Below are positions 40,437 to 58,627 of a DNA stretch of 64,000 nucleotides, in pieces. The notes below the pieces were generated by a model that searched no databases, had not been told where the DNA came from, and saw only the letters and a program-made list of their open reading frames with translations. This DNA comes from Escherichia coli (GTDB lineage Bacteria > Pseudomonadota > Gammaproteobacteria > Enterobacterales > Enterobacteriaceae), in assembly GCF_044324875.1 (NCBI RefSeq), contig NZ_CP172185.1; one strand, written 5' to 3'. Every line of letters starts with the position of its first letter. Positions within the stretch are counted from its first letter, which is position 1. Position numbers and translations under genes: made by a program.

Positions 40437-40491
40437 GGTGATGCTGCCAACTTACTGATTTAGTGTATGATGGTGTTTTTGAGGTGCTCCA

Positions 40492-40767
40492 GTGGCTTCT
40501 GTTTCTATCAGCTGTCCCTCCTGTTCAGCTACTGACGGGGTGGTGCGTAACGGCAAAAGCACCGCCGGACATCAGCGCTATCTCTGCTCTCACTGCCGTA
40601 AAACATGGCAACTGCAGTTCACTTACACCGCTTCTCAACCCGGTACGCACCAGAAAATCATTGATATGGCCATGAATGGCGTTGGATGCCGGGCAACTGC
40701 CCGCATTATGGGCGTTGGCCTCAACACGATTTTACGTCACTTAAAAAACTCAGGCCGCAGTCGGTAA
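40492..40767 (+). CDS. insA: IS1 protein InsA
   Basis: 91-aa ORF with zinc-finger CPSC...CSHC; inside IS1. Confidence 0.95.
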
Positions 40768-41189
40768 CCTCGCGCATACAGCCGGGCAGTGACGTCATCG
40801 TCTGCGCGGAAATGGACGAACAGTGGGGCTATGTCGGGGCTAAATCGCGCCAGCGCTGGCTGTTTTACGCGTATGACAGGCTCCGGAAGACGGTTGTTGC
40901 GCACGTATTCGGTGAACGCACTATGGCGACGCTGGGGCGTCTTATGAGCCTGCTGTCACCCTTTGACGTGGTGATATGGATGACGGATGGCTGGCCACTG
41001 TATGAATCCCGCCTGAAGGGAAAGCTGCACGTAATCAGCAAGCGATATACGCAGCGAATTGAGCGGCATAACCTGAATCTGAGGCAGCACCTGGCACGGC
41101 TGGGACGGAAGTCGCTGTCGTTCTCAAAATCGGTGGAGCTGCATGACAAAGTCATCGGGCATTATCTGAACATAAAACACTATCAATAA
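40686..41189 (+). CDS. insB: IS1 InsB' frame (transposase InsAB' is made by -1 frameshift from insA)
   Basis: 167-aa ORF overlapping insA in the -1 frame, as expected for IS1. Confidence 0.9.
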
Positions 41190-41204
41190 GTTGGAGTCAT
41201 TACC

Positions 41205-41213
41205 GTTCGGCGG
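41205..41213. repeat. 9-bp target-site duplication GTTCGGCGG (right copy) of the IS1 in nfsA
   Basis: Identical to 40428..40436. Confidence 0.9.
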
Positions 41214-41843
41214 ATATGATCGCTCCAGGTATCCCGGCGATTATTGCTGCCACGTGTGAGGTAATATTCCGCCAGTTGTTCGTCATACTGCGCCAGTGCG
41301 TCTTTATCCAGCGGTTGATAGCTGTTTTCATGCACCAAAATGGAGGACGGTAAACGCGGCTTAAGATCCGGATTATCCGCAGGCCAGCCAAGGCACAGCC
41401 CAAACAGCGGCAGAACATGCTGCGGTAATTTCAGCAGCTCCGTCACCGCTTCAATATTATTGCGCAGGCCGCCGATATATACCCCGCCCAATCCCAGCGA
41501 TTCCGCTGCGGTTAATGCATTCTGCGCCATCATTGCCGTATCAACGACACCGAGCAACAGTTGTTCCGCCAGGCCGAGCTGAGCATCCGGACAGATCTGT
41601 AAATGGCGGTTAAAGTCGGCACAGAACACCCAAAACTCCGCCGCTTGCGCTACGTGTTTTTGCCCGCCGGTCAGCGCCACCAGTTCTTCACGTAACGCTT
41701 TGTCGGTAATGCGAATAATGCTACTGCACTGCAAAAAACTGGAACTGGACGTCGCACGGGCGCTGTTAATAATCGCCTCACGCTGCGCTTCGGAAATGGG
41801 TTCATCAGTGAAATGGCGAATGGAGCGATGGCCACAAATAAGT

Positions 41844-42131
41844 TCAATGGTTGGCGTCATTATCTTTTTCTCTTTCTGAACGTGAATATTGCGGTGGACG
41901 GTTCATCAGCTGTGGGGCAAGACGTTTTGCCACCTGAAGAATAACCACCACCGCAGCGGGAAGCATGAGCAAAACACCGAGAAAAATCATCAGAATCTGC
42001 ACTTCTGGCCGAGAAAATGGCTCAGGCAGCGACAGGGAGCCGCTTACCGACAGCAGCGCCACCGCCAGCAACATCATTCCGATAAATTCCAGTATCAACA
42101 CGCTTTTAGGCAATTTACCGATCGCGCGCAT
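41844..42131 (-). CDS. ybjC: inner membrane protein YbjC (DUF1418)
   Basis: 95 aa; first gene of the ybjC-nfsA-rimK-ybjN cluster. Confidence 0.85.
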   Translation of the reverse strand: MRAIGKLPKSVLILEFIGMMLLAVALLSVSGSLSLPEPFSRPEVQILMIFLGVLLMLPAAVVVILQVAKRLAPQLMNRPPQYSRSEREKDNDANH

Positions 42132-42290
42132 ACGCTTCCCTCTGCAAAGTGAGCCTTCAGTCTAAAACTTTTCACTGTATTGTGTTTAACAGTTATAGCT
42201 TTTAGCAATTAATGCAACAGGTTAAACCTACTTTCAGCGAATACATTTTAGCGTGATCATTACAGGCATAAATCTATGAGGAGAGAAATA

Positions 42291-42548
42291 ATGCAAACCG
42301 TTATTTTTGGTCGTCCGGGTTGCCCTTACTGTGTGCGTGCAAAAGATCTGGCTGAGAAATTGAGCAATGAACGCGATGATTTTCAGTATCAGTATGTAGA
42401 TATTCGTGCGGAAGGGATCACTAAAGAAGATCTACAACAAAAGGCAGGTAAACCCGTAGAAACCGTGCCGCAGATTTTTGTCGATCAGCAACATATCGGC
42501 GGCTATACCGATTTTGCTGCATGGGTGAAAGAGAATCTGGACGCCTGA
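42291..42548 (+). CDS. grxA: glutaredoxin 1
   Basis: MQTVIFGRPGCPYCVRAK with CPYC active site; 85 aa. Confidence 0.95.
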   Translation: MQTVIFGRPGCPYCVRAKDLAEKLSNERDDFQYQYVDIRAEGITKEDLQQKAGKPVETVPQIFVDQQHIGGYTDFAAWVKENLDA

Positions 42549-42557
42549 TCGTCTGAC

Positions 42558-42590
42558 AAGCCCTCGCGTTGAGGGCTTTATTGATTTTTT
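42558..42590 (+). terminator. grxA intrinsic terminator
   Basis: aagccctc gcgtt gagggctt followed by a T-rich tract. Confidence 0.7.
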
Positions 42591-56332: not shown

Positions 56333-56516
56333 TTAATCTTAAGGCAGATCTAACAAGGATATTGTTCTTCGATCTGCCTCTGCTACCCTTCCCGATGTCC
56401 TACCCTTACGCACAAAATCCCCTGACGCATAAATCGAGAAAAATGAATCGTACTCGAGGCAACTCTCACTTTTTCACACCAAATTAAAGTTTTGATCGCA
56501 ATTACTTGAAATAAGC

Positions 56517-56542
56517 GTAATGGTTACTATAGTAAACATTAC
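56517..56542. promoter_or_regulatory. imperfect palindrome gtaatggttac-tata-gtaaacattac immediately upstream of the toxin gene; putative toxin-antitoxin operator overlapping the promoter
   Basis: 11-bp arms with one mismatch flanking TATA, 16 bp upstream of the ATG at 56558 with an AAGGA ribosome-binding site between. Confidence 0.5.
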
Positions 56543-56557
56543 CACAAGGATGGATGT

Positions 56558-56944
56558 ATGGGTGTGTATAAGGCAAGACGATTCAGCCAAAGCACGAAAA
56601 AACTTGGTATTCACGATAAAGTTCTCATGGCTGCCGCTGAAGAAGTGATGCAGGGCATATGGGAGGCTGATTTAGGTAGCGGTGTCATCAAAAAACGTTT
56701 ACCCCTCCAACAAGGAAAGAGTGGTGGAGCCAGAACAATTATCTTTTTTAAATCAGCAAATCATGTGTTTTTTTATGATGGTTGGTCCAAGAGTGGTCTA
56801 AGCAGTAAAGGAACCAAAGAAATCGAAGATGATGAACTGGCGGCCTACAAAAAAATGGCAAATGCATTTCTGGCCTTTAGCAATAAGCAAATAGAGGATT
56901 TGATCGAAACTGGCTTTTTGATTGAGGTGAAAAATGAGCGATAA
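56558..56944 (+). CDS. type II toxin, RelE/ParE superfamily (HigB-2 / 'killer protein' type)
   Basis: 128 aa; motif PLQQGKSGGARTIIFF typical of HigB-2/Gp49-like toxins; overlaps the downstream HTH gene by 11 bp. Confidence 0.7.
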   Translation: MGVYKARRFSQSTKKLGIHDKVLMAAAEEVMQGIWEADLGSGVIKKRLPLQQGKSGGARTIIFFKSANHVFFYDGWSKSGLSSKGTKEIEDDELAAYKKMANAFLAFSNKQIEDLIETGFLIEVKNER

Positions 56945-57263
56945 ATTACAAATGATGCTGGAAGATGCAAAGGAACTGAATGCACTGGGCCTGATGTCTG
57001 ATAGTGAAGTTGATGCCATTGCCGTCATGGTCAAAGCTCGTGAAGTCAGCGCCCGTATAGCCAAAGTCAAATCAATGACGGGTGAAGAGATCAAAGCCAT
57101 CCGCACCCGATACGGCATGTCACAATCCGTGCTGGCACATACAATGGGAATGTCAAAAGAAAGTGTCTCGAAATGGGAACGTAATGAAATAAAACCGAGC
57201 GGCCCGGCATTACGTATTTTGAATACATTGGCAATAAAAGGGCCGGAAGTTTTTGCAAAGTAA
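56934..57263 (+). CDS. type II antitoxin, XRE-family HTH (HigA-2-like)
   Basis: 109 aa; C-terminal HTH IRTRYGMSQSVLAHTMGMSKESVSKWER; translationally coupled to the toxin. Confidence 0.7.
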   Translation: MSDKLQMMLEDAKELNALGLMSDSEVDAIAVMVKAREVSARIAKVKSMTGEEIKAIRTRYGMSQSVLAHTMGMSKESVSKWERNEIKPSGPALRILNTLAIKGPEVFAK

Positions 57264-57332
57264 AATGTTTGCAAATGATTTACCACATTCATTAGTACCC
57301 CTTGATTAAGGGGTACTAACACTATTCTAATT

Positions 57333-57859
57333 CTACTGCCAGCTAATCTGCGCCCTGCCGTTTTTCTTACTCTTATACAGTCGCTCATCCGCCAGCATTT
57401 TCAAGCGTTCAACGGTAGTACATTCATTTGAATGCGCTACACCGATACTGGTGCTTAAATTAATGCTTCCCACCTGGAAATGAACAATTTCTTTTAGAAT
57501 CGATAGCAACTCTTCCAGCGTTCCACCCGTATAAATCACCGCAAATTCGTCACCGCCGAAGCGGTAGACTTTACCTTTATCTACGGGGATCTGTGATTTA
57601 AGGATTTTCACCACTTTCATCAACACTTCATCGCCCAGCAAATGACCGAAGGTGTCGTTGATGTTTTTGAATTTATCGACGTCAAACAGGCACAAATAAC
57701 CGCCTTTTTCCGGCAGCGCTTTTAAATCTTCGTCAAAGGATTTTCTGCCCATTGCTTTGGTCAGGTCATCCAGGAACGCCGAGTTATACAGACTGTAGAG
57801 TTTTTTGACATCGGCAGCCGAAAAGAAAAGCCCGCCATCCAGTACGCGTTCAAAATGGT
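57333..57859 (-). pseudogene. dgcI: 3' fragment of a diguanylate cyclase gene (GGDEF domain, most likely dgcI/yliF) truncated by IS1
   Basis: Frame is open from the IS1 junction; reads ...[21 protein letters not shown]...[27 protein letters not shown]...[11 protein letters not shown]... (complete GGDEF domain) with no upstream membrane or sensor part. Confidence 0.7.
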
Positions 57860-57874
57860 GGTAATGACTCCAAC

Positions 57875-58378
57875 TTATTGATAGTGTTTTATGTTCAGAT
57901 AATGCCCGATGACTTTGTCATGCAGCTCCACCGATTTTGAGAACGACAGCGACTTCCGTCCCAGCCGTGCCAGGTGCTGCCTCAGATTCAGGTTATGCCG
58001 CTCAATTCGCTGCGTATATCGCTTGCTGATTACGTGCAGCTTTCCCTTCAGGCGGGATTCATACAGTGGCCAGCCATCCGTCATCCATATCACCACGTCA
58101 AAGGGTGACAGCAGGCTCATAAGACGCCCCAGCGTCGCCATAGTGCGTTCACCGAATACGTGCGCAACAACCGTCTTCCGGAGCCTGTCATACGCGTAAA
58201 ACAGCCAGCGCTGGCGCGATTTAGCCCCGACATAGCCCCACTGTTCGTCCATTTCCGCGCAGACGATGACGTCACTGCCCGGCTGTATGCGCGAGGTTAC
58301 CGACTGCGGCCTGAGTTTTTTAAGTGACGTAAAATCGTGTTGAGGCCAACGCCCATAATGCGGGCAGTTGCCCGGCAT
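57875..58378 (-). CDS. insB: IS1 InsB' frame
   Basis: Translation identical to the copy A insB frame. Confidence 0.9.
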
Positions 58379-58572
58379 CCAACGCCATTCATGGCCATAT
58401 CAATGATTTTCTGGTGCGTACCGGGTTGAGAAGCGGTGTAAGTGAACTGCAGTTGCCATGTTTTACGGCAGTGAGAGCAGAGATAGCGCTGATGTCCGGC
58501 GGTGCTTTTGCCGTTACGCACCACCCCGTCAGTAGCTGAACAGGAGGGACAGCTGATAGAAACAGAAGCCAC
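58297..58572 (-). CDS. insA: IS1 protein InsA
   Basis: Translation identical to the copy A InsA. Confidence 0.95.
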
Positions 58573-58627
58573 TGGAGCACCTCAAAAACACCATCATACA
58601 CTAAATCAGTAAGTTGGCAGCATCACC

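Follow-up and report, generated by a model that had tools for sequence, protein, structure and literature searches.

Two identical IS1 copies in inverted orientation at nfsA and dgcI-pdeI of an Escherichia coli chromosome, most likely the product of two separate insertion sequence events

The insertion sequence IS1 is known from Escherichia coli K-12 and plasmid R100 in the forms IS1A and IS1R, which are 768 bp long, are bounded by imperfect inverted repeats (IRs) of ~23 bp, encode insA-insB′ with a −1 frameshift at an A6C motif and create a 9-bp target duplication. A 768-bp IS1 with 9-bp direct repeats was described at the 3′ end of nfsA in the isolates IN01 and IN02 (693InsIS1R), where it truncates the C-terminus of the protein (PMC8767348). 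IS1 is also found at deletion junctions. Deletions of 11-66 kb adjacent to IS1, removing nfsB, arise readily (PMC10569738), and IS-anchored deletions were recorded in mutation-accumulation lines (PMC5009759). Such junctions hold a lone IS1 without a target duplication, one flank of which is new. Homologous IS copies that are inverted on one chromosome have led to inversions in the long-term evolution experiment, where inversions made up 19 of 110 rearrangements and most rearrangements were recombination between IS elements (PMC4173774). Here we report on a 64,000-nucleotide stretch of an E. coli genome (contig NZ_CP172185.1, assembly GCF_044324875.1; hereafter the window), in which two identical IS1 copies in inverted orientation, copy A in nfsA and copy B between dgcI and pdeI, bracket a segment of 16,655 bp.

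We consider it very likely that two separate IS1 events of an ordinary kind, both in a single E. coli lineage, gave rise to the pair, and that its inverted-repeat layout is a by-product. Every component is of a kind already known: IS1A-like elements, an nfsA gene interrupted by IS1, an IS1-adjacent deletion and an IS pair that is a potential inversion substrate.

Junctions of the two IS1 copies

A repeat search of the window detected the IS1 pair as its sole long repeat, with arms of 768 nt that are 100% complementary and separated by 16,655 nt. A perfect match of this length is not attributable to chance, and the pair is thus a real feature of the sequence. An earlier note, made from the sequence alone, had described the two copies as identical, inverted and encoding the same InsA and InsB frames. 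This was borne out by the repeat pair and by the open reading frames (ORFs), since both copies code for the same InsA (91 aa) and the same InsB-frame ORF (167 aa) on opposite strands. The ends of each 768-bp copy are those of IS1 (left inverted repeat, IRL, GGTGATGCTGCCAACTTACTGAT; right inverted repeat, IRR, GGTAATGACTCCAACTTATTGAT). An A6C slippery site is found at IS position 307 in both, and a −1 frameshift there yields an uninterrupted InsAB′ frame of 232 aa. A partial gene at the IS end matched PF03400 (DDE_Tnp_IS1). Over the 768 nt, the copies have three mismatches to IS1A of K-12, nine to IS1B and IS1C, two to the IS1 of two other strains and none to each other. From their sequence, both elements are IS1A-like and apparently functional, and they share a recent origin. 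They differ from IS1A and IS1R of K-12 and R100 in few point differences and, in the case of copy B, in the lack of a target duplication owing to a secondary deletion.

Copy A is bordered on both sides by the direct 9-bp repeat GTTCGGCGG (Table 1), of a length within the 8-9 bp that IS1 duplicates, and the intact target duplication claimed for it in the earlier note is therefore present. In JNEC-KY178, the closest complete genome (99.76% identity over the segment), the site is empty and the 9-mer occurs once and uninterrupted. The duplication on both sides of the element, together with the single 9-mer in JNEC-KY178, identifies copy A as a simple insertion. Alignment to the reference nfsA placed the insertion point between nt 656 and 657 of the gene. 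Removing the IS and one 9-mer in silico restored the 240-aa NfsA.

The insertion deprives NfsA of its last 21 residues, Arg225 among them. This residue forms hydrogen bonds to ligands, nitrofurantoin included, and supports the dimer interface via Glu99 (PMC8286842). An E223 frameshift and an IS1R insertion at nfsA nt 693/694 were found in clinical isolates with a nitrofurantoin minimum inhibitory concentration of 256 mg/L, each of them accompanied by an nfsB lesion (PMC8767348). Since these lesions of resistant isolates lie nearer to the C-terminus and Arg225 is lost here, we infer on good grounds that NfsA is very probably inactivated by copy A. The disruption of nfsA by copy A is the main functional consequence and had been missed in the earlier note. 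The present insertion differs from 693InsIS1R in its position (656/657 instead of 693/694), in that its site was found in no complete RefSeq genome, and in being known from sequence alone. The exact 225-aa NfsA′-IS1 fusion protein was, however, also present in public E. coli assemblies.

Loss of nfsA is recurrent. Among 5,426 complete RefSeq E. coli genomes, to which all counts of complete genomes below refer, 38 had an IS1 end close enough to this nfsA flank to be joined to it; in the 12 best listed of these the IS1 was inside nfsA at other positions. An independent internal stop in nfsA was found in TUM1886. The IS1 insertions elsewhere in nfsA and this stop together indicate the recurrence. 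A rough uniform-density estimate that ignores clonal relatedness suggested a ~3-fold excess of IS1 near this nfsA site.

The flanks of copy B, CAAAATGGT and GCCAGATAC, share no target duplication. Alignment to three references, either IS-free or differently interrupted, revealed that exactly 1,974 bp are absent at this position. The missing DNA comprises the 5′ 802 nt of dgcI (of 1,329), a 7-nt spacer and the 3′ 1,165 nt of pdeI (of 2,349), and this adjacent deletion accounts for the missing duplication. Judged from these alignments, copy B is an IS1-associated deletion junction and not a simple insertion, a point that had been overlooked. Compared with the IS1-adjacent deletions reported previously (PMC10569738, PMC5009759), the deletion at copy B is small and affects parts of dgcI and pdeI. 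It also appears to be fixed in a lineage, on ~50 public contigs, and was not seen arising in culture. The 139-aa product of the dgcI remnant was considered as a marker for the copy B lineage but was rejected as not specific, this ORF also being produced by dgcI alleles with other frameshifts.

IS1 was found in or near dgcI-pdeI in 55 complete genomes, the listed ones having it at other positions. About 36 would be expected in the 3.7-kb dgcI-pdeI region by a rough uniform-density estimate ignoring clonal relatedness, and the region is thus no strong IS1 hot spot. Independently interrupted nfsA or dgcI-pdeI loci were seen in other E. coli (L001, 6734-7501; L002, 4829-5598; L025, 36881-37603).

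Table 1. Positions in the window of the IS1 copies, their flanks and the bracketed segment.
Feature	Position	Strand	Remarks
nfsA 3′ remnant, gene nt 648-723	40361..40436	-	Severed by copy A; from reference nfsA alignment
Left target-site duplication GTTCGGCGG, copy A	40428..40436	.	Once at JNEC-KY178 empty site
IS1 copy A, IS1A-like, 768 bp	40437..41204	+	IRL starts 40437, IRR ends 41204
Parts of copy A	insA 40492-40767; A6C 40743-40749; insB′ frame up to 41189	+	
Right target-site duplication GTTCGGCGG, copy A	41205..41213	.	
nfsA′, truncated, 225 aa vs 240	41183..41860	-	Residues 1-219 + VMTPTY (IS-encoded) + stop inside IS1
Bracketed segment, 16,655 bp	41205..57859	.	Ancestral orientation; colinear same-strand alignment, 99.76% to JNEC-KY178
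Segment genes in order			nfsA′, ybjC, grxA, ybjM, ybjL, RybB, rcdA, ybjJ, ybjI, ybjH, mdfA, ybjG, deoR, dacC, gstB, yliI (pseudogene), bssR, rimO, relE/parE-like toxin, HTH antitoxin, dgcI′
RybB	44990-45068		
yliI pseudogene (aldose sugar dehydrogenase)	53186..54300	-	1-nt deletion at gene position 571; split into two ORFs
dgcI′ 3′ remnant, 527/1,329 nt	57333..57859	-	GGDEF domain only
IS1 copy B	57860..58627	-	Identical to copy A, opposite orientation; no target duplication; replaces 1,974 bp
pdeI′-IS1 ORF, 401 aa	58606..59811	-	Runs 22 nt into IS1
pdeI′ 5′ remnant, 1,184/2,349 nt	58628-59811	-	CHASE9 sensor only; EAL domain deleted

Distribution of the junctions and order of events

None of the complete genomes contained the left junction of copy A or the left or right junction of copy B as one contiguous piece. 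Only two-piece matches were recovered, with IS1 at other positions. The exact IS1 fusion proteins are, however, encoded in public draft assemblies labelled E. coli. The NfsA′-IS1 fusion protein was found on 5 contigs listed (8 read), including contigs of 5.75 Mb and 17,070 bp, and the exact PdeI′-IS1 fusion protein on 49 public contigs (52 index blocks). Loci retrieved from the fusion-bearing assemblies were 100% identical to the window, and the lengths of two contigs from other assemblies (17,070 bp and 16,710 bp) correspond to the distance between the two IS1 copies. The nfsA::IS1 allele (656/657) and the 1,974-bp dgcI-pdeI deletion with IS1 are thus absent from complete RefSeq genomes, yet they are ordinary variants at the level of strain or lineage.

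The deletion at copy B preceded the insertion of copy A. A near-identical draft assembly (L022, GCA_016679215.1) has, on a 72.6-kb contig, only 2 SNPs in 20.7 kb relative to the window (99.99%), and its nfsA site is empty, encoding the reconstructed ancestral NfsA. The end of this contig maps exactly to position 57859 of the window, the last base before copy B. An intact nfsA combined with a contig end at the copy B junction places the deletion first. The same order is supported by the counts of the two fusion proteins, PdeI′-IS1 occurring on 49 contigs against 5 for NfsA′-IS1. The 1-nt deletion in yliI is probably the most recent event, very recent or strain-specific, since the product of the yliI fragment was found on only one other public contig (16,710 bp, in two samples), that is, in even fewer assemblies.

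We suggest the following sequence of steps. An IS1A-like element would first have entered dgcI-pdeI, and an IS1-associated deletion would then have removed the 1,974 bp. This could have happened by intramolecular transposition of IS1 into an adjacent site, with deletion of the intervening DNA, or by a second nearby IS1 insertion in direct orientation followed by recombination between the two elements. Each of these routes is well established. The outcome would be copy B, lacking a target duplication and located between a GGDEF-only dgcI stub and a sensor-only pdeI stub. Later, an identical IS1 would have inserted at nfsA 656/657 with a 9-bp duplication, possibly from copy B by local hopping. 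This second step would have cost NfsA its 21 C-terminal residues and cut rimK-ybjN off from the ybjC-nfsA genes upstream. The yliI deletion would probably have come last. New insertions of IS1A are known to fall close to existing copies more often than expected: 23 were counted within 10 kb, where 5.1 were expected, and 37 within 50 kb, where the expectation was 25.1 (PMC5009759).

Several points weigh against this account or parts of it. An IS1 with a target duplication at either copy B junction, as expected of a precursor, was found in none of the complete genomes. As no precursor allele was found, the two deletion routes, which give the same product, are not distinguishable. Copy B is possibly the donor of copy A, but an identical IS1 elsewhere in the genome, beyond the window, may have been the donor instead. 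Inactivation of NfsA is a prediction, as is any resistance phenotype, and nfsB lies outside the window. The presence of copy B in GCA_016679215.1 is deduced from a contig that ends at the exact junction, and not from IS1 sequence that was read. Lastly, the perfect identity of the two copies could partly stem from consensus polishing of repeats during assembly.

Orientation of the segment and alternative explanations

The window aligned to reference chromosomes as one colinear series, in which the 16.6-kb segment shares its strand with the flanks on either side. The neighbours beyond the segment are also ancestral, with rimK on the nfsA side and pdeI and then gsiD on the dgcI side, in the order of IS-free genomes. 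The earlier note had placed ybjC through rimO between the copies. The segment is wider than that, reaching from the 5′ portion of nfsA as far as the 3′ remnant of dgcI, with a toxin-antitoxin pair among its genes. Colinearity with IS-free E. coli and the direct duplication at copy A both bear out the note's statement that no inversion had occurred in this assembly, and the synteny comparison with related genomes that it had proposed gave the same order and orientation. An inversion mediated by the IS pair was accordingly not detected: the segment was in the ancestral orientation, and the duplication was whole at copy A and not split between the copies. From this orientation and the direct duplication it follows that no inversion has been fixed in this assembly.

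The inverted pair is nevertheless a legitimate substrate for recombination and could allow RecA-mediated inversion of the 16.6-kb segment. Recombination between IS copies, detected as deletions, has been estimated at ~4.5e-5 per genome per generation for all copies (PMC5009759). A flip of the segment would probably be near neutral, because an IS1 remains at each junction and no new gene fusions are formed. Recombination between the two copies could not delete the segment, since they are inverted. Both inner flanks (nfsA′ and dgcI′) abut IRR and both outer flanks (the rimK side and pdeI′) abut IRL. The junctions between flank and IS end are therefore the same in either orientation, and only molecules spanning a complete 768-bp IS1 would tell the isomers apart. 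Unlike in the long-term evolution experiment (PMC4173774), no inversion has occurred here, and 16.6 kb is short compared with many of the events reported there. A paper on strains RR1 and HB101 (PMC5379014) was not used as an inversion precedent, because it concerns the invertible P-DNA of prophage e14 and not IS1. An invertible segment of the Hin, Gin or Pin type was not indicated either, as the borders are complete IS1 elements and the list of segment genes, compiled without a recombinase domain search, includes no invertase. All segment genes are orthologues of housekeeping E. coli genes or belong to the RelE/HTH pair.

Among the alternatives to two ordinary IS1 events, the one that survives best, although we regard it as improbable, is a reductive process of the Shigella type with IS1 expansion and widespread pseudogenes. 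The earlier note had seen a Shigella-like signature of genome decay in this region, and two IS1 copies with five disrupted genes (nfsA, yliI, dgcI, pdeI and yljB) within 64 kb could be read in this way. Closer inspection did not support it. Just two IS1 events account for three of the five gene losses. When 53 conserved reference genes were scanned across the window, 48 were intact, and a 49th, rlmC, was only partially aligned beside an accessory cassette while its 375-aa ORF was intact. The real disruptions in the scan were limited to nfsA, dgcI, yliI and yljB; pdeI, which was outside the scan, is also truncated. The window has also gained accessory DNA, namely a P4-like island, a sulfatase/phosphotransferase system (PTS) cassette and the toxin-antitoxin pair. 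The junction proteins were labelled as E. coli in their source databases, and one of them was on the 5.75-Mb contig, a length that exceeds the size of Shigella chromosomes. Near-identical relatives lack the nfsA insertion and the yliI frameshift or rarely have them, and both lesions are recent and at the level of the strain. Queries containing IS1 had a median of ~10 match places per complete E. coli genome, so that two copies in 64 kb are unremarkable.

A further reading would give the pair or its history an active role. It holds that the segment flips often enough for two isomers to be present in one culture, that the losses at dgcI-pdeI and then at nfsA were adaptive steps in an emerging clone, or both. 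We think this quite unlikely. If it were true, the steps would reflect altered c-di-GMP signalling followed by nitrofuran exposure, in a clone that lies outside the complete-genome collections.

It is very improbable that the 18.2-kb IS1-16.6 kb-IS1 unit is a composite transposon that arrived as a whole or that moves genes such as mdfA. Composite transposons such as Tn9 and Tn1681 are built from IS1 pairs, whichever way the two copies face, and here two functional-looking copies do flank the DNA. The segment, however, has not left its ancestral place in the chromosome and keeps the ancestral neighbours at either end, and the outer flanks, GTTCGGCGG and GCCAGATAC, do not share the duplication that borders elements such as Tn9 and Tn1681. 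A unit of 18 kb would also be expected to transpose inefficiently. A search of plasmids for the segment recovered no genuine plasmid copy. The matching records labelled as plasmids were either 0.7-4.9 Mb long or contigs from single cells, and they look like chromosomal DNA that was labelled plasmid.

The chance that the arrangement is an artefact of assembly, with collapsed or homogenised repeats or an arbitrarily oriented segment, seems similarly slight. Polishing can yield perfect identity between repeats, and short reads cannot fix the orientation of a segment whose inner flanks both meet IRR and whose outer flanks both meet IRL. Against this, three of the four junctions between flank and IS1 were recovered at 100% identity from separately deposited assemblies or read sets, possibly including reads of the source strain (the nfsA′ side in L003 and L004, the pdeI′ side in L007 and the dgcI′ side in L020). 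The assembled orientation is also that of all IS-free relatives, and the direct duplication at copy A fits it. Least credible of all is a one-step origin by 'inversion-insertion', in which copy B would have transposed replicatively into nfsA on the same molecule, a route that yields a second, inverted IS and flips the DNA in between. IS1 is capable of replicative transposition and the copies are identical and inverted, but the segment would then be inverted, while it is ancestral, and the two 9-bp target copies would lie at different IS elements, while both border copy A directly.

Neighbouring features and consequences of the two events

The first 3,701 positions of the window (1-3701) hold the end of a P4-like element. 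One of its genes encodes a tyrosine integrase on the minus strand (2297-3535), another is of the AlpA helix-turn-helix (HTH) type, and a third is Icd-like. The element borders on yljB/cspD, and in the reference genome clpS-clpA are located upstream of the junction point. ARAGORN detected no tRNA gene at this junction or anywhere in the window. The gene yljB (24 codons, 3716-3789), beside the island junction, has 74 nt against 75 in the reference (a 1-nt gap) and may be disrupted. The exact island junction is common to five complete genomes of 5.3-5.7 Mb, TUM1886 among them. TUM1886 was considered as a member of the same lineage but was rejected despite this common junction, since it is without the sulfatase/PTS cassette and without both IS1 copies.

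The cassette of 3.5 kb occupies positions 29119-32632 in the interval between artJ and rlmC and encodes a sulfatase (493 aa), a PTS IIB protein (106 aa) and an EIIC-GAT-type PTS IIC protein (447 aa). The near-identical L022 carries the cassette, and WP3-W18-ESBL-08 and TUM1886 lack it. Its borders showed neither an IS nor a repeat, and the adjoining 3′ end of rlmC diverges. A pentapeptide-repeat gene (22136-23938) is an uninterrupted ORF of 600 aa in the window; the annotation of WP3-W18-ESBL-08 gives it as frameshifted, and that of TUM1886 as partial. The toxin-antitoxin pair, consisting of a RelE/ParE toxin (128 aa) and an HTH antitoxin (109 aa), lies between rimO and dgcI (56558-57263) with the toxin gene first. 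It is variable in E. coli and was missing from loci L012, L015, L018 and L019.

Identity to JNEC-KY178 was 98.8% on the rimK/pot side (34428-40436), 99.76% in the segment (41205-57859) and 99.6% beyond it. From this shift in identity, we suspect that a boundary in a recombination mosaic lies close to nfsA/rimK and has no connection with the IS1 copies.

In practical terms, the probable inactivation of NfsA matters here, and not the possible inversion. NfsA is the main nitrofuran-activating reductase, and its loss is the usual first step toward nitrofurantoin resistance. As 91% of the gene remains, screens for gene presence can miss the probable nfsA knock-out. IS1 copies beside nfs genes are able to generate further deletions (PMC10569738). 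Copy B provides an example of one element removing a diguanylate cyclase and a phosphodiesterase, both genes of c-di-GMP signalling, in a single event. The IS1 pair also explains the ~17-kb contigs that are found at this place in short-read assemblies of the clone.

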